NCBI GenBank assembly: GCA_012646105.1
Contig: GCA_012646105.1_4328.1
Source: a phage
Length of the DNA stretch: 43,583 nucleotides
Strand: one strand, 5' to 3'
The position numbers and the translations under genes are program-made. Below, piece by piece: positions 8,613-39,863 of this stretch; the stretch's first letter is position 1; each line of letters opens with the position of its first letter. The notes under the pieces are model-generated. The model was given only the letters and a program-made list of their open reading frames with translations, had not been told where the DNA came from and ran no database searches.

Positions 8613-9029
8613 CTACTTTTCCTGCAATTGGCGAAGCTGTTCGTTATGGAAAACAACAACATGTTCAGCTAGACGTTTATATTGAGAGAAAAGAGTATTC
8701 AGGTTCTCTTTATTAAATTCATCGTCGAGACTCCAACCGTTAACCAGTTCAAGTGCTAACTGGCGGTTAAGGTCCGTCGCGGCGTCTTCCATCTTAATGT
8801 TGTATTCCGAGAAATCTTTCAGTTCCTCGCATTTATCACGAAGCGGTTTCAATTTACCTAATGCTGCTCGGTACGCCAGGGTAAACGCCCTCATAGCTTT
8901 AACGGCAACGTCGGCATCGGGGGAGACAACGTTAAGCCATTCTCCTGAATCGGTGCCGTCTTTCAGCGGGATTGGCATACGGGCGCCTTTTTCGGCCTCA
9001 GCTTCGTAATAAAAATCAGAAAGTTTCAT
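8613..9029 (-). CDS. tail assembly chaperone (gpG-like, 138 aa)
   Basis: acidic small protein directly upstream of the second chaperone ORF and tape measure; conserved G/GT position. Confidence 0.55.
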   Translation of the reverse strand: MKLSDFYYEAEAEKGARMPIPLKDGTDSGEWLNVVSPDADVAVKAMRAFTLAYRAALGKLKPLRDKCEELKDFSEYNIKMEDAATDLNRQLALELVNGWSLDDEFNKENLNTLFSQYKRLAEHVVVFHNEQLRQLQEK

Positions 9030-9136
9030 TATTTAATCCTTTGGTTAAGAGGTTACTGGTTAAGGTTAATGCGCCAGGCGGGAACCACCCGCTTTTCGTG
9101 TGCGACACTAGGCGCAAAATAATTCTAACACATTAC

Positions 9137-9165
9137 TTGCGCACCCCAACATAATAGGATACTAT
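9137..9165 (+). promoter_or_regulatory. sigma70-like promoter TTGCGC-N17-TACTAT with embedded AATAG-N4-CTATT operator-like palindrome
   Basis: -35 at 9137-9142, -10 at 9160-9165, 40 nt upstream of ATG 9206; near-identical copies at 18181, 28837 and 29836. Confidence 0.5.
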
Positions 9166-9205
9166 TCACTTACACCAACGATGTTATCTTAAACGGGGCT
9201 ATATC

Positions 9206-9397
9206 ATGACAAGCATTACTATGTTCTTCTTAATCATTATTGTTTTAGTTTATTTTATTCCGTTTCTCGTGGCGCATATGCGCAACCATAAAGCTAAATT
9301 AGCGATATTCATGGCTAATCTGTTTCTCGGTTGGGTTCTGCTGCCGTGGGTATTTATTTTAATCTGGGCGTGCAACTCGAATGTCAAAGAGAAGTGA
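9206..9397 (+). CDS. small inner-membrane protein resembling superinfection-immunity family proteins (63 aa, 2 TM)
   Basis: two hydrophobic helices; motif VAHMRNH...AIFMANLFLGWVLLPW matches my recollection of the Imm_superinfect family; opposite strand to flanking tail genes. Confidence 0.55.
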   Translation: MTSITMFFLIIIVLVYFIPFLVAHMRNHKAKLAIFMANLFLGWVLLPWVFILIWACNSNVKEK

Positions 9398-9435: not shown

Positions 9436-10566
9436 ATGGCCCAGAAGAAAATAACCGACGAACAGTTGCAGGAAGAATTGAACGCCGGGATGAAGAATAT
9501 CGACATCGCCCGTAAATACGGCATCTCAGACCGCGTTATTCGTATTCGTAAAGCAAAACTAGCTAAGAAAGGCGTAGGCCACGGGCGTGACGTCAGTCAC
9601 CTTGTGCCAGACGGCTACAAGATTAAAGGCACGTCGTCACTGGTGGACGAGTTCGGCAACACTAAGTTGCAATGGGTTAAGACCGACACTGACGCCGAAC
9701 GTCAGGTCGAGTTGATGAAAGCCGTAATCGAGGGCATGAAGTCAGAGATTAAACCGGTTGCGCCTGTTAAAGCGGCCCGAGCCAAACGTGACGATAAACT
9801 ACTCAATCTTTACACTGTATCTGATTTCCATCTCGGTATGCTGGCCTGGGCTGACGAGAGCGGCGACGACTGGGACATGAGGATTGCGGAAGACCTGTTC
9901 TCCCTCTGGTTCGATGCGGCGTTTCAGAAAGCGCCAGATGCAGGAACAGGGGTTATTAACCTGCTGGGCGACCTTGCGCACTTCGATAGTCTGGATGCCG
10001 TTACCCCAGCGAGCGGTCATATTCTTGACGCTGACACGCGCTACCAGAAACTGGTCCGCTACATGATTCGTATGGTCCGCCGTGTTGTCGATATGGCCCT
10101 CGTTAAGCATAAAAATGTTCGCCTGCTTATCGTGCAAGGGAACCACGACGAAAGTGGAATGATTTGGTTAGCTGAGATGTTCAGTACGCTGTACGACAAT
10201 GAGCCTCGTGTGTTCGTCGATACGTCACCGGATGTTTACAAGATGGTGCAACACGGCAAAACTACGCTGTTCTTCCATCACGGGCATAAAGCACGATTCG
10301 ACGCTATTGAACCGGTTATGATTGCCAAGTTCCGCAAAGCGTTCGGCGAAAGCGAGTACAGCTACGCCCATGTAGGGCACCTGCACCATCAGAAGATTGT
10401 AGAAAGCCGTAACATGATTGTTGAACAACACCGCACATTAGCGGCAAAAGATGCCTACGCCTCCCGCGGCGGATGGATGTCGGGCCGTAGCGCAAACGTA
10501 ATTACTTATAGCGCCGAATATGGCGAGATCGCACGTTTAACGATTTCACCGGAGATGCTGGGATGA
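9436..10566 (+). CDS. N-terminal HTH fused to calcineurin-like metallophosphoesterase (376 aa)
   Basis: HTH-like segment aa 18-45; phosphoesterase motifs D130-x-H132, G178-D179, G235-N-H-D238, H281-H-G-H284, G314-H-L-H317; RBS AGGAAG upstream. Confidence 0.7.
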   Translation: MAQKKITDEQLQEELNAGMKNIDIARKYGISDRVIRIRKAKLAKKGVGHGRDVSHLVPDGYKIKGTSSLVDEFGNTKLQWVKTDTDAERQVELMKAVIEGMKSEIKPVAPVKAARAKRDDKLLNLYTVSDFHLGMLAWADESGDDWDMRIAEDLFSLWFDAAFQKAPDAGTGVINLLGDLAHFDSLDAVTPASGHILDADTRYQKLVRYMIRMVRRVVDMALVKHKNVRLLIVQGNHDESGMIWLAEMFSTLYDNEPRVFVDTSPDVYKMVQHGKTTLFFHHGHKARFDAIEPVMIAKFRKAFGESEYSYAHVGHLHHQKIVESRNMIVEQHRTLAAKDAYASRGGWMSGRSANVITYSAEYGEIARLTISPEMLG

Positions 10567-17629: not shown

Positions 17630-17861
17630 GGGTAATCACCTCTGATTTCGTCTTGCCTTCGTTGTCAGCGGCGGCTGCCTTTGATTCGTCCTGCTGCTGC
17701 CGTTGTGTTTTCTTCGCTAACTCGGCCTGCGCTTCTTGCTGTTGCTGTGAAACGAGATTCGCCCGGCCTTCGTTCCAGCCGCTGCGGTATTGAAAGTAGC
17801 CGTGTGCGTAAGCCAGGATGATGAAACATGCTCCAGCTACGACAGTTGCTTTAAGATTCAT
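17475..17861 (-). CDS. Rz-like inner-membrane spanin (128 aa)
   Basis: N-terminal TMD (VVAGACFIILAYAHGYF), Gln/Glu/Ala-rich coiled coil, overlapping o-spanin ORF. Confidence 0.65.
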   Translation of the reverse strand: MNLKATVVAGACFIILAYAHGYFQYRSGWNEGRANLVSQQQQEAQAELAKKTQRQQQDESKAAAADNEGKTKSEVITREVVKYIRTPGRSVCTFDDARVLLKSRAVANANSIPGYDDDAAAVQTGHAK

Positions 17862-17885
17862 GTTTCTCCTTTCTCGATAAGTAAA

Positions 17886-17905
17886 GCCCCGCCTTAAAGC
17901 GGGGC
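17886..17905 (-). other. stem-loop GCCCCGC-CTTAAA-GCGGGGC about 25 nt upstream of spanin start
   Basis: 7 bp GC stem followed by T-rich tract on minus strand; putative attenuator or terminator. Confidence 0.35.
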
Positions 17906-18180
17906 GCTAGTCCTTATCATTTAAACACAGAAACGGCGTAATCTCAGTAAATCAGTTACTTTTTACACAAGCAATAGAGTATGGCCCTTCCGGACGCGTC
18001 AGCGTAACTACACTCAGGACTTACGTCCAGCTCCGTTACCTGCCCGCGACGCGGTCGCTTGTTCATACTTCACAAGCTCAGGTGGAGCTTAGCATATTTT
18101 TAGTGAAAAGTCAACTATTCGAATAGTTTATTCCAACATTTACAATTGAGTGGAATAACTGGAATGCGTAAACAAATAGT

Positions 18181-18209
18181 TTGCATACTCCAATATAATA
18201 GGGTACTAT
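18181..18209 (+). promoter_or_regulatory. promoter TTGCAT-N17-TACTAT with embedded operator-like palindrome
   Basis: -35 at 18181-18186, -10 at 18204-18209, RBS AGGAG at 18224-18228, ATG 18237. Confidence 0.5.
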
Positions 18210-18236
18210 TCAGTTAACTTAAACAGGAGATGAGAA

Positions 18237-18758
18237 ATGGTTACTACGGTAATTACTTTCCCTGCGTATGTAGGGGCGAAAATCTGCAGGGCTAAAAACG
18301 ATGTGCGCTACTATTTGAACGCTTTTTACATAGAACCTGAGGGGTTGATAGTGTCTACGGATGGGCATAGATTGTTCTGCGACAATGTGAAGACAAACGT
18401 TGAGAAAGGGGTTCTCATTGATATCAAAGGGAGAGAGCCTTCTAAATTTAACTACGCAGAGGTAGACCACGACAACGGCAGTGTTTCTTTCTATGACGAT
18501 AGTCGCGCGCTTATATGTACACTTCCGGTAGATGTTGTAGAAGGAAACTTTCCTGACTGGAGACGCGTGGCGCACATCACACCGGGTGTTGTCGATAGTA
18601 TAGGGTTCACTCTGCGTTATTTGGCAGACGCGTACAAGATTTCTAAGGCGTACAAAAATGAAATTTCTCGTTTCGATTTCCAGGACCAAACCAGAGGATG
18701 CAAAATATCATTTTCAAACACGGCCTTTATGGTGTTAATGCCCGCGCGATTTAAATAA
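18237..18758 (+). CDS. hypothetical protein (173 aa), counter-oriented insertion in head module
   Basis: strong RBS, own promoter and terminator; no motif recognised. Confidence 0.6.
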   Translation: MVTTVITFPAYVGAKICRAKNDVRYYLNAFYIEPEGLIVSTDGHRLFCDNVKTNVEKGVLIDIKGREPSKFNYAEVDHDNGSVSFYDDSRALICTLPVDVVEGNFPDWRRVAHITPGVVDSIGFTLRYLADAYKISKAYKNEISRFDFQDQTRGCKISFSNTAFMVLMPARFK

Positions 18759-25748: not shown

Positions 25749-25777
25749 AATATAATAGGGTCGACGGTAATAGTCAA
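25749..25777 (-). promoter_or_regulatory. promoter TTGACT-N17-TATATT (minus strand) with operator half-site
   Basis: -35 at 25777-25772, -10 at 25754-25749, upstream of gene starting 25714. Confidence 0.4.
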
Positions 25778-25805
25778 CTAGTCATTGCAGAAATAGATAA
25801 AAAAA

Positions 25806-28805: not shown

Positions 28806-28836
28806 CTTCTGTCTCTCCTCTCGTTTGTGTAAATGA

Positions 28837-28865
28837 ATAGTAGCCTATTCTATCTTAGTGTGCAA
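28837..28865 (-). promoter_or_regulatory. promoter TTGCAC-N17-TACTAT (minus strand) overlapping GAATAG-N4-CTATTC palindrome
   Basis: -35 at 28865-28860, -10 at 28842-28837. Confidence 0.5.
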
Positions 28866-29134: not shown

Positions 29135-29157
29135 AAGTCACTCAGTAAAATCCCAAA

Positions 29158-29319
29158 CTATTGACCTGTTACACCACCTGTCATACCGGCACGATATTGC
29201 ACACCAGCTTTCCACGCCCGCCACGCGAGACGCGTCTTAACGTTCAGGTACTCTTTCTTCGAACCCTTGTTAACTGGCAGACCCTCGACGACGGCCCACC
29301 GTTCGAATGCTTCTCTCAT
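29158..29319 (-). CDS. small hypothetical protein (53 aa)
   Basis: hand translated (MREAFERWAVVEGLPVNKGSKKEY...); weak G-rich RBS. Confidence 0.35.
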   Translation of the reverse strand: MREAFERWAVVEGLPVNKGSKKEYLNVKTRLAWRAWKAGVQYRAGMTGGVTGQ

Positions 29320-29810: not shown

Positions 29811-29835
29811 TCCTCTGTCTCGTTTCGATAAGTGA

Positions 29836-29864
29836 ATAGTAACCTATTATGTTGGGGTGTGCAA
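29836..29864 (-). promoter_or_regulatory. promoter TTGCAC-N17-TACTAT (minus strand) with embedded operator palindrome
   Basis: spacer ACCCCAACATAATAGG is almost identical to that of the 9137 promoter. Confidence 0.5.
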
Positions 29865-30296
29865 GAAAATAGTTACGTTGCCGTTGTGATTCTTTGGGGA
29901 AGGTTGTGCCTTTATTCTTATTACTTGGTAACTAAAGGGCAGGCCTTAAGCCTGCCCAATAATCGTTACATTTTTACGGTTGCGAATCTACGGCATATTA
30001 AGAAAATCAGATACTTAAGAGATATGCTGCCGATGTGAATAGAGCTTGCCCAGGGCAACCGGAGATACTTAGGAAGGAAAGTTACGATAATTCATATGTT
30101 CAGTAAGCCTGCTGCTTAACCCTTTGCTTAACGCACGGGTTAAGCATTCTTACAAGGTGAACAGGAATCAAAGTAACTAAGATATAGAAGCACCTTAAAC
30201 GAAGATTTTCATAATGTCAATAGGTGCGATTATGTTTTATTTCCCATTATTCGCAATGTATACTTGGTTTCGTTAACTGATAATGAGGGTTTGAGA

Positions 30297-30467
30297 ATGA
30301 CGCAGAATGAGGTAGCTGAGCGTATCGGGGTTACTCGTCGCACGCTGAATAACTGGTTAAAGAGTGGGAAGTTCCCTGATTGTTGTATTCGCATTATGGG
30401 CCGCCGTCAGCCAGGTACGTTCGACCCGGAGAAAGTGGAAGCGTGGATTAAGGAGAACGTGAAATGA
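30297..30467 (+). CDS. AlpA/Xis-like HTH transcriptional regulator (57 aa)
   Basis: MTQNEVAERIGVTRRTLNNWLKSGKFPD...WIKEN pattern; RBS GAGGG. Confidence 0.6.
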   Translation: MTQNEVAERIGVTRRTLNNWLKSGKFPDCCIRIMGRRQPGTFDPEKVEAWIKENVK

Positions 30468-30697
30468 CAGAGTTCCAGTCACGCGTATTTACGGCAGTCG
30501 TTTCGTTAACACGTAAAAAAGGTTCGTGCAGCGTTATCGACTTGCGCCGTAGTTATTTTAAGTACTATAGTTCAGCCATTATTGAAGGGTCGTTACGCGT
30601 GCTGGTTAAATCCGGTGTCGTGAAAAATGTTGGCGGGAAATATAGCGCCGTTGCTGAAGTGCGCGGAATGACCGCTACTTTAGAAGACCTGGAATAA
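30464..30697 (+). CDS. hypothetical protein (77 aa)
   Basis: six-frame ORF, ATGA coupling. Confidence 0.5.
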   Translation: MTEFQSRVFTAVVSLTRKKGSCSVIDLRRSYFKYYSSAIIEGSLRVLVKSGVVKNVGGKYSAVAEVRGMTATLEDLE

Positions 30698-30756
30698 AAG
30701 AAAGCCCCGACGCGGTGAACGCCGAGGCTAAATTACTTGCTGAAGGAATATACAAC

Positions 30757-32997
30757 ATGTCCGATGTAATTTTATCCTACTCGTGGTCTCGTCGCAACGC
30801 GCGGGCGGAGAAAAAGGATATAAACGTCAGAACCACACACACGGCAACACTGGACGACCTGAAAGAGTTAATCCAGCCGCTCGATGCCGTTCGCGATGGG
30901 GTTAACCTGAAGACCGCGCCCGGCTATATCACGGCCGCGTGTGACTCTACGCACAGCACCGTAAAAGACCCGGAAACAGGTGACTTTAAGCAAGCTCGTA
31001 AAGGCTTCTTCTATCGCTGTGACGCGTCTGTAAGCAAATCGTCGCTGGCATATCTGGACTTCGACAGCGCAACGCCGGAAGAGTATCAGGAAGCTGTGCG
31101 CCTGGTTAAGCGCAGCCGTAAAGCCATGTGCCTTTACACCACGGCATCACATACCGATGAGTCCCCACGCTTTCGCGTCGTCATGCCGCTGGCCCGCCCG
31201 GTCGAAGGCGGCGACATCATCCGTGTTCGCCACGGGTTGCTGGAGCATTTCTTTAAGGGCATGGGTGCTGACCGCAGCGGGTTCACTCTGTCCCAGCCTA
31301 TGTACCTGCCGCCGGTCGGCTCGCAGGTTATCTGGTCGCGTCGCAATGACCCGATTGACCCGGACGAGTTACTGGAAGGCATCCCGGATTACGAGGTGAG
31401 CAGCGCATCTGACTACCAGATACCGGAAGAACTGCGCACAGCGTTTACGGACGCGTTTGAGGCACTGGCGTTCGAGTACGGCGGCATCATGACGCCACGC
31501 GGCCTTAAGATGCCCGCCACACTAGAACACGCAGAAAACTACAGCGACCCGACGCCGCGTCCTGACGACTTCCTGCTGTGTTTCCCGCGTGAAGGATATG
31601 AAGCGCCGAACGTAACCATGATTCACGACACCGACATTACGGCAACCGAAGGCATGTCGCCGAAAGAGGTGTGGAAGTACGCGTGTGATGCTACAGGGCT
31701 TCCGTTCAGTGAAGTTGCAGAGGCTATCGGCTGGGGTGCGCGTGAATCTGTTTCATGCAGCCTCGACGACCTGGAAGACGACGATGACTCAGAGGAGGAC
31801 GAGCTACCAGAACCAGTAAAGGCTGATTTCGTCGTTGAAGGGTACATGCCGTCGGATTGCATCTGGGACATCGTCGGGGAGTCTGGTACGTATAAATCCT
31901 TCTATACGCTGGGGATGATGTACCTGAGCGCCGCCGGATACCGGTTTGCAGGGGCAGACACCCAGCGTTGCCATCACTTCTATATCGACGGTGAAGGCGG
32001 CGCAGCTACCCGCACCCGTATCGATGCGCTCACGGCTAAATATGGCGAGGAAGGTAAAGATTATGTGCATGTCATAGATATGGGCGAAGTCGGCAAGCTG
32101 AAAAACCTGATTAAGTTGATGCGTGAAACTGCTGGCGACGAGCCAATTGGCATGGTCGCGTTCGACACTCTCAACCAGACACTGGCCCTGACGATTGATA
32201 AGTTCGACGAGAACAGTTCATCAACGGCAATCGGCATGGGTAAAGTTATCGCCATCCTGAAAGAAGTACGTGACGCAACTAAAGCCGCGGTGGGCGTCGT
32301 CCACCATACACCGAAGGGCGGAAAGAAAGCCCGTGGCAGCGGGGCGCTGTATGCGGGTGTCGATGTGGAACTGACAATAGAACGTGCAACCGACCGTCAG
32401 ATAAACGTATACCACTCGAAATTTAAGCACGGGCCTCAACAGAAAACGGTTGGTATGGTGCTCGAGTCTGTACAGTTCCGTGAAGCACCACCGCCGAAAG
32501 AGTACCGTGCTGTTGAGTTCTTGGGCAGCACAGAGGAATACGGCACAATCGTAAACCTCGACCTGCCGGAACCACACAAGGCGCTTGTTCTGATGCCGTG
32601 GGGCTTCGAGCCGTTCAAAACTGACGAGGAGAAAGAGCGGGAAGAAGGGTTAACTAACGAAGGTAAACAAAAAGTAAAGGAAGAAGTTAAACGCGGCAGG
32701 GATGAAGTAAGGAAGGAGTCGATACTTTCGGCACTGGAAGACCTGCAACAGTCAGATGACACAGGTCGCGGTTTTACTCAGCAGCAGATAGTGGCCCGTT
32801 CCGGTGACTTTTCTGTGACTAACACCCATCTTGATAAAATGCTGAAAGATGGTGAACTAATGCTAGGCTGTGATGCTAATGGCGAAGTAGTACCGAGAAC
32901 GTATCGTATACCTGAAAGAATAGGGGATAGACTAAGACCGAAGACAATATACGAACCGAATGAAATGCTGGTAGTGACAGAAGAGGATTTGGAATAG
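30757..32997 (+). CDS. DNA primase / replicative helicase fusion (alternative GTG start 30715)
   Basis: C-terminal Walker A GESGTYKS and Walker B VAFDTL, N-terminal primase-like region; RBS GAAGGA. Confidence 0.7.
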   Translation: MSDVILSYSWSRRNARAEKKDINVRTTHTATLDDLKELIQPLDAVRDGVNLKTAPGYITAACDSTHSTVKDPETGDFKQARKGFFYRCDASVSKSSLAYLDFDSATPEEYQEAVRLVKRSRKAMCLYTTASHTDESPRFRVVMPLARPVEGGDIIRVRHGLLEHFFKGMGADRSGFTLSQPMYLPPVGSQVIWSRRNDPIDPDELLEGIPDYEVSSASDYQIPEELRTAFTDAFEALAFEYGGIMTPRGLKMPATLEHAENYSDPTPRPDDFLLCFPREGYEAPNVTMIHDTDITATEGMSPKEVWKYACDATGLPFSEVAEAIGWGARESVSCSLDDLEDDDDSEEDELPEPVKADFVVEGYMPSDCIWDIVGESGTYKSFYTLGMMYLSAAGYRFAGADTQRCHHFYIDGEGGAATRTRIDALTAKYGEEGKDYVHVIDMGEVGKLKNLIKLMRETAGDEPIGMVAFDTLNQTLALTIDKFDENSSSTAIGMGKVIAILKEVRDATKAAVGVVHHTPKGGKKARGSGALYAGVDVELTIERATDRQINVYHSKFKHGPQQKTVGMVLESVQFREAPPPKEYRAVEFLGSTEEYGTIVNLDLPEPHKALVLMPWGFEPFKTDEEKEREEGLTNEGKQKVKEEVKRGRDEVRKESILSALEDLQQSDDTGRGFTQQQIVARSGDFSVTNTHLDKMLKDGELMLGCDANGEVVPRTYRIPERIGDRLRPKTIYEPNEMLVVTEEDLE

Positions 32998-33016
32998 GTA
33001 AAAAAAGAAAGGGGCG

Positions 33017-33232
33017 TTAAGCCCCTTCACCGAACGCCAGCCACTTGGCGTCTACTTGCAGAACTTCCGCCAGTTTAAACAGCGTCGCCGGGCGGACGTC
33101 CTGAGTTACCCCAAGTGCAAGCTGGTTAATCGCGCCCTGGGAAACGCCGGCCAGGACAGCCAGACGGCGCTGGGAGATGCCGAGTTCTTTACGGCGTTGT
33201 TCTACACGGATGCCTAGTTCAGATGGTTGCAT
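33017..33232 (-). CDS. XRE/Cro-type HTH regulator (71 aa)
   Basis: LGISQRRLAVLAGVSQGAINQL helix-turn-helix; perfect RBS AAGGAG; divergent from plus operon. Confidence 0.7.
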   Translation of the reverse strand: MQPSELGIRVEQRRKELGISQRRLAVLAGVSQGAINQLALGVTQDVRPATLFKLAEVLQVDAKWLAFGEGA

Positions 33233-33252
33233 GTCAATTACTCCTTAGTCAG

Positions 33253-33325
33253 TTGATATGTGAATAGTACCATATTAATTATTTTAGAAAAGCCCATTGA
33301 CATGTGAATAGTTCGCTATTATAGT
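33253..33325. promoter_or_regulatory. divergent promoter/operator region with two operator palindromes
   Basis: TTGATA-N17-TAATTA and TTGACA-N17-TATAGT, each spacer containing TGTGAATAGT; leftward -10 TACTAT at 33269-33264. Confidence 0.5.
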
Positions 33326-33357
33326 TAGCCCATACCAAACGAGAGGAGAGAAACAAA

Positions 33358-33534
33358 ATGGCTAAACGTAAAGATTATGATGCTAACTGGAAAGTGTGGT
33401 TTCCCAACGTCATCCTAGAAGGACGTGGGAATGTTGAAGGTATGATTACTCAGGCATTCCGTTTCTTACCCGAAAACATGCAGAAAGACATTCTTAAAGA
33501 ACTTAACAATATCGCCGAACAGGAGAACAAATAA
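33358..33534 (+). CDS. small hypothetical protein (58 aa, MAKRKDYDANWKVWFPN...)
   Basis: hand translated; RBS AGGAG 9 nt upstream; TAATG coupling to next gene. Confidence 0.5.
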   Translation: MAKRKDYDANWKVWFPNVILEGRGNVEGMITQAFRFLPENMQKDILKELNNIAEQENK

Positions 33535-34061
33535 TGTTAGAGAAATTCTTAGTATTACTGGAACGTTTCGTAGTTGCGCATGAACTGATTGCTGCGAACA
33601 GTGTGAAACAACCGACTAATAAATCTGTAGGTGAATTGACTGTTGACGTCGCGGTAACGGGGGTAGAGACAGTTAAAAAAGAACTGGCTAAAGCACTTGA
33701 AGAAGTCGAGAAGGCGAAAGAAATCCCGGTTGAAGGTGAAGACGTCGTTGACACTAAACCGGCAGAAGATGAGAAGCCGAAACGCAAGCCTGGCAAATCA
33801 AAACCAGCCCCTAAACCTGTAGAGGAACAAACACCGGAGCCGGAAGAAGAAGTCGATTACCAGTCTCTGCGTGACCAGATTCAGGCTATCGACGATGCGA
33901 TTAACGAAGGTCCGAGCGATGCCGCGTGCGACGATTCCGATGAACTACTGGAAGAGTTCACCGGTAAGAAAATGAAGATTGCCGCGATTAAAGACGAAGA
34001 CCTGGCTGAATATCTGGAACGCCTCACGGCAATCAAGAACAAGTATTTCGAAGAAGAATAA
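33534..34061 (+). CDS. acidic hypothetical protein (175 aa)
   Basis: six-frame ORF; Glu/Asp/Pro/Lys-rich central region. Confidence 0.5.
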   Translation: MLEKFLVLLERFVVAHELIAANSVKQPTNKSVGELTVDVAVTGVETVKKELAKALEEVEKAKEIPVEGEDVVDTKPAEDEKPKRKPGKSKPAPKPVEEQTPEPEEEVDYQSLRDQIQAIDDAINEGPSDAACDDSDELLEEFTGKKMKIAAIKDEDLAEYLERLTAIKNKYFEEE

Positions 34062-34116: not shown

Positions 34117-34389
34117 ATGATTTACCAACTCTACCGAGCCGTAGACAGGCGGGATAGCACAGAGGCGTTATGGCTGTTGCGCGCTCCGTCCGGTGCGCAC
34201 CAGATGGAAGAGATGGCGTACTTAGGCAAAGTACCACGGCCTAAAGATATAGGCCGTCACGTGTCGCAGATTAAGCGCACGACTTTCGCCAAACCTGACT
34301 TTTATGTCTTCGAGTCGATGTATGGATGGGCGATGCATTGCCACCACCAGACACGACATTTAATTGACCAGTGGGAGAGCAGAGTATGA
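34117..34389 (+). CDS. hypothetical protein (90 aa)
   Basis: ATG 34117 with RBS GAGGG; ORF-track start 33979 overlaps upstream gene. Confidence 0.5.
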   Translation: MIYQLYRAVDRRDSTEALWLLRAPSGAHQMEEMAYLGKVPRPKDIGRHVSQIKRTTFAKPDFYVFESMYGWAMHCHHQTRHLIDQWESRV

Positions 34390-34883
34390 ATTGGCATGAA
34401 GTTTTTGACTATGACCCTGATACCGGTAAATTATTTTGGAAAATAAGTCCGTCAAAATCTGTAAAAATAGGGCAAGAAGCTGGCAGTACGAGGGAGGACA
34501 ACGACGGGAGTGAATTTAAAATACTACGTTTTAACGGGACTACTAAACTTATCCACCACGTAGTTTGGGAGATGTTTAACGGGCCGATAGCGCCGGGGGA
34601 AGTAATTCGTCATAAAAATAAAGATAGAACTGATAACAGAATAGAAAATCTTATAAAAATGCGCCGAGGTAGTATCGCACACGGCACCAACATACGGACG
34701 GACAATACTTCAGGGGTTAAAGGTGTTGGGTTTCATAAACGCTACGGTAAGTGGGTCGCGAGAATTTATGTAGACGGCAGGCCGATTTATTTAGGGGCCT
34801 ACGATAAGTTAGAGAACGCGGCTAAGGCTCGTAGGCAAGCCGAGATTAAATATGGGTTTACAGTTAACGGGGCTGAGAAATGA
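34386..34883 (+). CDS. HNH endonuclease with AP2-type DNA-binding domain (free-standing homing endonuclease)
   Basis: HHVVWEMFNGPIAPGEVIRHKNKDRTDNRIENL HNH motif; GVKGVGFHKRYGKWVARIYVDGRPIYLGAY AP2-like. Confidence 0.75.
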   Translation: MNWHEVFDYDPDTGKLFWKISPSKSVKIGQEAGSTREDNDGSEFKILRFNGTTKLIHHVVWEMFNGPIAPGEVIRHKNKDRTDNRIENLIKMRRGSIAHGTNIRTDNTSGVKGVGFHKRYGKWVARIYVDGRPIYLGAYDKLENAAKARRQAEIKYGFTVNGAEK

Positions 34884-36125: not shown

Positions 36126-36154
36126 TTGACACCTGAATAGTTAGCTATTATATT
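36126..36154 (+). promoter_or_regulatory. promoter TTGACA-N17-TATATT with TGAATAG-N4-CTATTAT operator in spacer
   Basis: consensus -35, upstream of 36208 gene. Confidence 0.5.
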
Positions 36155-39578: not shown

Positions 39579-39863
39579 ATGACCCCGGAAGGAAAGATTC
39601 AGAAATACGCAAAAGAGCAATTCGAGGCCATTGGCGGCCTCGTTCGTAAGATGGCATTTGAAGGTCGGCGGGCCGCCATGGACCTCCTGGTAATTCTCCC
39701 CGGCGGCATCGTCTGGTTCGTCGAGGTTAAGAAAGACGAAAACACGAAGCCAGACCCGCACCAACTACGGGAACATGAGAGATTTCGAAAACGTGGCGCT
39801 AATGTTTTTGTCGTTGGTTCGTTTAAACAGGTTGACGACCTAATAGCGAACTATTATAGTTAG
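39579..39863 (+). CDS. VRR-NUC domain nuclease (94 aa)
   Basis: DLLVILPGGIVWFVEVK PD-(D/E)xK-type core. Confidence 0.6.
   Translation: MTPEGKIQKYAKEQFEAIGGLVRKMAFEGRRAAMDLLVILPGGIVWFVEVKKDENTKPDPHQLREHERFRKRGANVFVVGSFKQVDDLIANYYS

Follow-up and report, generated by a model that had tools for sequence, protein, structure and literature searches.

Operator-like dyads beside a 434 Cro-like gene belong to a genome-wide set of promoter sites in a Kagunavirus-type phage

Among the described phage repressors, Cro of phage 434 is the closest known counterpart of the protein considered here. It is a 71-aa, five-helix protein of the HTH_3 type (HTH, helix-turn-helix), its gene is located in a divergent promoter region, and its expected role is to turn down early transcription and to limit its own synthesis. 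The 434 operators (OR1-OR3) are three adjacent, shared sites of 14 bp with the half-site ACAA; they have conserved outer arms and a variable centre and overlap sigma-70 promoter elements. In other temperate phages the repressor sites are dispersed, i.e., the P1 C1 operators, the mycobacteriophage L5 gp71 sites, and the conserved inverted repeats of phiC31, where one short site is repeated through the genome so that one protein controls many transcription units. The C proteins (C.AhdI, C.BclI) are small XRE-type HTH dimers that recognize dyads in their own promoter and act as concentration-dependent, autoregulated activator-repressors of a single operon. Here we analyze a stretch of phage DNA of 43,583 nucleotides (NCBI GenBank assembly GCA_012646105.1, contig GCA_012646105.1_4328.1), referred to as a whole as the window, in which a minus-strand HTH_3/XRE gene for a 434 Cro-like protein (33017-33232) and a plus-strand gene starting at 33358 are separated by an intergenic gap of 125 bp (33233-33357). 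The gap carries a 14-bp dyad, defined as AATAG-N4-CTATT, at each of two divergent promoters, and dyads of this kind mark about ten promoters of the window, among them nearly all of its strong predicted ones. We propose that the two dyads of the Cro region are two nodes of a genome-wide set, which would serve ordinary phage gene control and not a lysogeny switch.

The locus shares with 434 the size and fold of the protein, the divergent setting of its gene, and a candidate site of the same length with conserved outer arms, a variable centre, and overlap with sigma-70 elements. It differs from 434 in several respects: the half-site is AATAG instead of ACAA; there are two sites 44 bp apart, one per promoter, instead of three adjacent shared operators; about eight further copies of the dyad are found at other promoters of the genome; and neither a CI partner (or divergent CI gene) nor a lysogeny module or tripartite shared operator was detected among the open reading frames (ORFs) and Pfam scans of the window. 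With P1 C1, L5 gp71, and phiC31 it has in common one short site repeated genome-wide, but those repressors maintain lysogeny whereas the window belongs to a virulent phage for which no prophage was found in the genome collections described below. Many L5 sites are inside operons, whereas every convincing copy in the window is in a promoter. The C proteins, although among the Foldseek matches of the Cro-like protein, are less similar to it than 434 Cro and come from another genetic context.

The region around 33233-33357 matches 476 phage records, nearly all of them E. coli Kagunavirus or Salmonella Jerseyvirus phages of 40-45 kb in the subfamily Guernseyvirinae. At 43.6 kb the window has the full genome size of this group, and it is a virulent Kagunavirus-type siphophage of E. 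coli. Its replication-side genes code for a helicase-primase (AAA_25), a DUF2800/PD-(D/E)XK nuclease, an Enc34-type ssDNA-binding protein (ssDNA, single-stranded DNA), a family A DNA polymerase, a methylase, and an SNF2 helicase; its structural and packaging genes include those for terminase, portal, tail tube, and tape-measure proteins. Pfam scans took in 29 ORFs of the window, and this is the scope of all Pfam results given below.

The Cro-like gene and its divergent promoter region

The best sequence match of the Cro-like protein in the Protein Data Bank (PDB) is 434 Cro (71 aa, E 5e-7). Its AlphaFold2 model has five helices (pLDDT 79), and the best Foldseek match of the model in the PDB is 2cro, again 434 Cro, with 40% identity. 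By sequence and by predicted fold, then, the protein is a homologue of 434 Cro, and the first-pass annotation, in which the gene was called Cro-like from its sequence, was right on this point. In the 434 structures a glutamine contacts the outermost adenine of the operator; the aligned glutamine is conserved in the Cro-like protein, where Gln32 corresponds to Gln28 of 434 Cro, and the dyad starts with A. The gene is kept at the same position in all Kagunavirus and Jerseyvirus loci, and the search for close homologues in unrelated contexts returned none, only phage contigs of the same group. The lambdoid Klebsiella phage RCIP0098 has a homologue with 45% identity, which is annotated there as cro; it is located between CI and cII and adjoins 14-bp ACAA-N6-TTGT operators, the same size as the dyad of the window. 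The recognition helix, VSQGAINQLALG, is invariant across alleles that are 77-100% identical and that all come with the same dyad.

The two palindromes, the XRE/Cro gene, and the leftward and rightward promoters reported in the first-pass annotation are all present in the sequence (Table 1). The rightward promoter, P_R, has the joint best promoter score in the scanned region, and both of its hexamers are invariant in 30 distinct relatives. Among the 30 distinct versions of the P_R region the dyad arms are also invariant, and among the columns that vary most are the 3 nt separating the -35 hexamer from the right operator candidate (O_R) and two positions in the O_R centre. The left operator candidate (O_L) is nearly invariant in 30 distinct Kagunavirus-type sequences. 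The two sites lie in the copies of a 25-nt direct repeat (33253-33277 and 33297-33321; 84% identity, 44-bp spacing), one dyad per copy. The 11-mer ATGTGAATAGT has exact matches only at the two repeat copies and, with at most one mismatch, five matches against 0.53 expected, and the repeat is thus beyond chance. The distance between O_R and O_L is 44 bp in Kagunavirus and 55 bp in Jerseyvirus, a difference of one helical turn that may or may not have a meaning.

The promoter that reads leftward into the Cro-like gene is laid out like four others of the window. Its Jerseyvirus counterpart, TTGCAC-17-TACTAT at the equivalent place, supports the choice of TACTAT as -10 hexamer in the first-pass annotation and has a good -35 hexamer, so that the weak -35 is particular to the Kagunaviruses. 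A second leftward candidate, TTCACA-16-TAAAAT, would place O_R near -40, as in lambda PRM activation; it is conserved neither in the relative of locus L022 nor in Jerseyvirus, and we consider it less likely and a minor possibility only. A 9-nt inverted repeat, CATGTCAAT/ATTGACATG (33230-33238 and 33296-33304), is not conserved in the relatives and was taken as chance. Apart from the dyads, no repeat or dyad able to serve as operator of the Cro-like protein was seen in the divergent region. A terminator-like hairpin overlaps the stop codon of the Cro-like gene (Table 1); on the plus strand no T-run follows it, and in the Jerseyvirus PVP-SE2 the equivalent position has an annotated terminator.

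A dyad repeated at promoters throughout the genome

The exact dyad occurs seven times in the window against 0.02 expected, and with up to one mismatch there are 12 copies against 1.2 expected. All seven exact dyads and three or four imperfect ones, the copy at 18106 being tentative, are located in sigma-70-like promoter elements, and downstream of each exact-dyad promoter come a ribosome-binding site and, within about 25-70 nt, a start codon that matches it in direction. All three plus-strand promoters of the window with at least 10 of the 12 consensus positions carry a dyad.

The sites fall into three registers relative to the promoter hexamers. In the spacer register (TTGACA-N4-AATAGnnnnCTATT-ATAGT; 33307, 36136, and 39842) all sites are on the plus strand and the promoters drive the three replication operons. 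In the -10 register (TTGCAC-N10-AATAGGnTACTATT, in which TACTAT is the -10 hexamer; 9153 and 18197 on the plus strand, 28836, 29835, and 33263 on the minus strand) the genes served by the promoters are a superinfection-immunity gene with an exonuclease gene (9206-9397 and 9436-10566, preceded by the 9153-9166 dyad promoter), a RusA-like gene, two leftward blocks of small genes, and the Cro-like HTH gene. In the -35 register an imperfect dyad contains TTGACT, at 25769 and possibly at 18106, ahead of the packaging and head gene blocks. The 25769-25782 dyad is conserved in the relatives, with its mismatch on the other arm in Jerseyvirus. The first-pass annotation had described the divergent region as having the architecture of an autoregulated genetic switch. 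The part of this description that holds is the dyad over each divergent promoter; the idea of a self-contained switch does not, since at least eight other promoter-like elements share the dyad.

Table 1. Positions of the genes, promoters, and dyads discussed in the text (window coordinates)
Feature	Position	Strand	Description
Cro-like gene	33017-33232	-	71 aa, HTH_3/XRE; ORF; Pfam HTH_3, E 1e-12
Rightward promoter P_R	33297-33325	+	TTGACA (33297-33302)-17-TATAGT (33320-33325); 11/12 consensus positions
Right operator candidate O_R	33307-33320	.	Perfect dyad AATAGTTCGCTATT; P_R spacer, about -25 to -12
Left operator candidate O_L	33263-33276	.	Dyad AATAGTACCATATT, one mismatch; covers minus-strand -10 TACTAT
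Leftward promoter of Cro-like gene	33264-33292	-	-35 CTTTTC (33292-33287), 17-nt spacer, -10 TACTAT (33269-33264)
Alternative leftward promoter candidate	33281-33308	-	TTCACA (33308-33303)-16-TAAAAT (33286-33281); 10/12
Terminator-like hairpin and T-run, end of Cro-like gene	33008-33028	-	Terminator scan; overlaps stop codon
Second spacer-type promoter	36126-36154	+	TTGACA-17-TATATT, dyad AATAGTTAGCTATT (36136-36149); ahead of ssDNA-binding protein and DNA polymerase genes
Third spacer-type promoter	39832-39860	+	TTGACG-17-TATAGT, dyad AATAGCGAACTATT (39842-39855); ahead of methylase and SNF2 helicase genes
-10-type dyad	29835-29848	-	AATAGTAACCTATT; covers TACTAT of TTGCAC-17-TACTAT; ahead of small genes from 29810
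-10-type dyad	28836-28849	-	AATAGTAGCCTATT; covers TACTAT of leftward promoter; ahead of small genes from 28805
-10-type dyad	18197-18210	+	AATAGGGTACTATT; covers TACTAT of TTGCAT-17-TACTAT; ahead of RusA-like gene 18237-18758
-10-type dyad	9153-9166	+	AATAGGATACTATT; covers TACTAT (9160-9165), -35 TTGCGC (9137-9142)
-35-type imperfect dyad	25769-25782	-	AATAGTCAACTAGT; overlaps TTGACT of TTGACT-17-TATATT; ahead of small-gene and packaging block
Possible -35-type imperfect dyad	18106-18119	-	AAAAGTCAACTATT; embedded TTGACT, poor -10; ahead of head gene block; tentative
First gene of rightward operon	33358-33534	+	58 aa, function unknown; ORF; no Pfam/PHROG match; only three other loci have it
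Rival candidate binder, HTH_17 gene	30297-30467	+	56 aa, Xis/AlpA-like; first gene of helicase-primase operon

Conservation extends through the group. Each of the 46 Kagunavirus and Jerseyvirus loci examined has 2-7 exact dyads, located at matching promoters, and there are none in two Cornellvirus-type genomes, SP031 and St162, or in an unrelated lambdoid phage. In 32 Kagunavirus-type loci the arms are near the maximum of 2 bits per position and the centre carries little information, except where it is part of a -10 hexamer. In both promoter classes the base flanking the dyad shifts in concert between the genera, Kagunavirus having G there and Jerseyvirus T. The arms are conserved and the centre is free, and the dyad takes three registers with respect to the hexamers and occurs in both orientations; these properties suggest that it is the site of a dimeric DNA-binding protein and not a promoter element.

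The repeat had been noticed before in relatives. In the fBC-Eco01 genome paper seven such 20-mers were found with PHIRE and called promoters for an RNA polymerase that the phage encodes, their consensus being tgAATAGTa-ccTATTat-T (PMC9825357); one of them, PP5 (TGAATAGTACCATATTAATT, supplement of the same paper), is identical to O_L of the window. The Golestan phage paper likewise lists seven PHIRE promoters (PMC7203180). These "phage-specific promoters" are the same element as the dyad described here, and the reading as a set of operators is new relative to the papers searched. The published label is one form of a broader alternative in which the 20-mer is a promoter module only, spread by duplication or kept for strength, for a host factor, or for a phage polymerase, with no phage repressor involved. 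Parts of the dyad do double as -10 sequence (TACTAT, or in TATAGT its first T), and the leaders downstream are similar between copies. On the other hand, the left arm covers about -25 to -21, which sigma-70 polymerase does not read, and is invariant there, while neighbouring spacer bases vary, and the combination of conserved arms, free centre, registers, and orientations noted above points to a dimeric protein. To our knowledge, the consensus sites of the host regulators CRP, ArgR, and Fur offer no convincing match to the dyad. We therefore regard a pure promoter module as rather improbable. For its phage-polymerase version in particular, no RNA polymerase was detected in the Pfam scans, and the ORFs without Pfam matches occupy structural gene positions; the assignment is probably wrong since no polymerase gene was found in the window, and the host sigma-70 RNA polymerase appears to serve the phage throughout. 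A phage-polymerase promoter would also be expected to keep a fixed orientation and register, and the dyad occupies spacer, -10, or -35 positions of sigma-70-type promoters in both orientations. The dyad reads better as an operator than as a phage-polymerase promoter.

Several observations were made beside individual copies. The last ten codons of a 94-aa gene (39579-39863) contain the third spacer-type promoter together with its dyad, and by the sequence the bases at 39832-39860 double as codons, promoter, and candidate operator. On the minus strand about 240 nt (17862-18105) separate the possible promoter at 18106-18119 from the gene starting at 17861, with a strong hairpin and T-run (about 17885-17908) just ahead of that gene; the interval could be a regulated leader, a terminator, or a small RNA. 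The Rfam int-alpA RNA motif RF02996 matches 9054-9118 on the minus strand with 36.9 bits (gathering score, 35.8); the match is just upstream of the gene that starts at 9029 on the same strand and stands back to back with the dyad promoter at 9137-9165. At 29157-29184 some Kagunavirus relatives have an extra exact dyad (AATAGTAACCTATT followed by GACCTGTTAC), which is decayed in the window (two mismatches), so the number of dyads varies between strains.

Candidate proteins for the dyad

In the explanation we favour, to which we would give about an even chance, the Cro-like protein is an orphan repressor of the 434 Cro type that turns down the early and replication promoters and autoregulates through the dyad, by feedback and not as a bistable switch. 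The gene at 33017-33232 would code for a dimeric HTH repressor with the 14-bp dyad as its probable operator. On infection, early transcription by host polymerase would start from P_R and the remaining dyad promoters and would include the Cro-like gene. As the dimer accumulates it would fill the perfect dyads first and exclude polymerase from P_R and about six other promoters; located either at about -25 to -12 or at about -19 to -6, these dyads are placed such that binding should occlude polymerase. Replication, recombination, superinfection-immunity, and small early genes would be turned down in this way. At a higher protein level the weaker O_L would be filled and negative autoregulation would follow, while the imperfect -35 dyads (25769-25782 and the weaker candidate 18106-18119, which precede the packaging and head genes) would be affected least. 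The outcome would be a one-regulator negative-feedback circuit for early turn-down, comparable to Cro in lytic growth but acting genome-wide. The sites with their enrichment, promoter positions, and conservation, the family of the protein, and the lack of lysogeny genes are observations, whereas binding of the dyad by the Cro-like protein, the repression, and the order of site filling are inferred. With a single regulator and no antagonist, nothing points to bistability.

Several lines of evidence point to the Cro-like protein as the binder. With one dyad over each divergent promoter, the arrangement is as expected if the rightward operon is repressed and the repressor gene is under negative autoregulation; the site geometry fits the 434 family, and no alternative operator is apparent in the gene's own control region. 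In the Cornellvirus-type phages the P_R equivalent, which adjoins the Cro-like gene, is the only place that retains a dyad, with two mismatches. The concerted change of the flanking base (G vs T) parallels the change in the Cro recognition helix.

Other evidence weighs against this assignment. The recognition helix differs at four positions between Kagunavirus and Jerseyvirus (SQGAINQ vs SQSLITH) while the dyad arms are identical, and the Cornellvirus-type helix, TQSAISH, is close to the Jerseyvirus one, yet the multi-site set is absent from those phages. SP031 and St162 do have a Cro-like gene, but no alternative operator could be defined in them. TATTA-N6-TAATA occurs three times per genome and TAATACT recurs in SP031 promoters, neither of them beside the Cro gene, and a census of one-mismatch palindromes was too noisy. 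Since nearly every strong promoter has a dyad, the presence of one beside the Cro-like gene is weak evidence of the binder. One protein repressing nearly all promoters would explain late gene expression poorly, and the pattern of presence and absence fits a second protein better.

This second candidate is the 56-aa HTH_17 protein (Xis/AlpA-like), which matches Pfam HTH_17 and PHROG 66 ("excisionase and transcriptional regulator") and whose likely start is the ATG at 30297. In this alternative the dyad is regulatory but is bound by the HTH_17 protein, which represses or marks a phage-specific class of promoters, and the Cro-like protein has another or a local role. The HTH_17 protein is 80-88% identical between Kagunavirus and Jerseyvirus, compared with 64-65% for the helicase-primase and about 51% for the Cro-like protein; a protein that has to match many fixed sites would be expected to show such stronger conservation. 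It occurs together with the dyad in every Kagunavirus and Jerseyvirus genome examined, and the Cornellvirus-type SP031 and St162 have neither the protein nor the dyad set. Homologues were found in 443 phage records, every one of them Kagunavirus- or Jerseyvirus-type, and none outside this group. The promoter of the HTH_17 gene, i.e., the helicase-primase operon promoter TTTATT-17-TATACT, differs from the dyad promoters and has no full dyad.

Small winged-helix proteins of the Xis/AlpA type typically recognize direct repeats, as monomers or in a head-to-tail arrangement, and not 14-bp dyads. The contrast in presence and absence concerns three lineages only and is confounded by the rearranged helicase-primase module of the Cornellvirus-type phages, the flanking base changes between the genera without a matching change in the HTH_17 helix, and the dyad promoters are near consensus, so that an activator should be unneeded. 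Taken together, we consider the HTH_17 protein an unlikely binder, and the more specific proposal that the dyad is the signal of a phage-specific promoter class read by HTH_17, and not a Cro-like operator, appears improbable. If it were true, about ten promoters of a virulent phage would be served, from within the promoter core, by a minimal winged-helix protein, either as a global repressor or as a spacer-binding modulator, or else as a factor that is loaded onto polymerase. A model for HTH_17 might be sought in the Pseudomonas aeruginosa AlpA antiterminator, which binds between -35 and -10 (PMC9371919). As this protein is much larger and has a C-terminal HTH, its mechanism is not simply transferable to HTH_17, and AlpA-type antitermination was dropped to a low-probability lead. 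For the orphan Cro-type repressor an expression study of a relative could be relevant: in the RNA-seq time course of Kagunavirus K1B4 an HTH-domain gene ("008"), possibly the counterpart of the Cro-like gene and located three genes after an AAA-domain gene, is among only four early genes and is the only annotated one (PMC12645636).

The surroundings of the two candidate genes vary among the relatives. In the Cornellvirus-type phages FSL SP-031 (L045, 11098-13749) and St162 (L047, 9779-12685) the helicase-primase gene is inverted relative to the window and located downstream of the Cro-like gene on the same strand, at the place where the window has the HTH_17 gene and a 77-aa gene. Between the leftward small-gene operon and the helicase-primase operon the window has about 400 bp without a convincing ORF (29850-30296), including a hairpin, GGGCAGGCCTTAAGCCTGCCC, at 29937-29957; long stretches of this region are conserved in PVP-SE2 (L048, 4950-5470), and it could contain an origin, a packaging site, or a small RNA. 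The first genes of the rightward replication operon are variable among the relatives, and an endonuclease gene of the homing-endonuclease type with HNH_3 and AP2 domains (34371-34883) is inserted into this operon in the window.

Lytic control and its implications

The divergent layout and the homology to Cro proteins of temperate phages are all that speaks for a true lysis/lysogeny switch, with partner repressor and integrase located elsewhere or unrecognized. No integrase, recombinase, or CI-type repressor was found by the Pfam scans in the genome-sized window, in agreement with the first-pass annotation on integrase and recombinase, although the HTH_17 protein matches a PHROG family of the excisionase type. 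The search of host genomes that the annotation had recommended gave the same picture: window positions 30264-34061 have no match in 5,426 complete E. coli genomes, and no integrated copy was seen among 185,579 species genomes. The only helicase-primase relative in the latter set is on an 18-kb contig of an unrelated bacterium (Taishania pollutisoli scaffold22, L049), of which Jerseyvirus DNA covers 97% (identity, about 93-94%); no bacterial flank was seen, and the contig is probably contamination. Published descriptions also report these phages as virulent (PMC7203180, PMC9825357). A lysogeny switch is thus highly improbable and largely refuted. The preference of the first-pass annotation for early/middle timing over lysogeny is borne out as regards lytic timing; the word "switch" is not, as there is one regulator with no antagonist and with sites throughout the genome.

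We conclude that the feature is probably an ordinary Cro-type repressor/operator arrangement in a known group of virulent phages and no new kind of biology. Its practical side is that Kagunaviruses and Jerseyviruses are commonly isolated for use in phage therapy and biocontrol, that their small size makes them attractive chassis for engineering, and that the gene routinely annotated in these genomes as "repressor", "Cro", or "DicA" can be misread as a marker of a temperate phage. The analysis supports the reading of the Cro-like gene as a lytic-cycle regulator without a lysogeny partner, and the published "phage RNA polymerase promoters" are better read as operators inside host-type promoters. 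If the orphan-repressor explanation is true, most transcription units of the phage would be under one small protein and one 14-bp site, and such a compact timing circuit would be easily tested and rewired.

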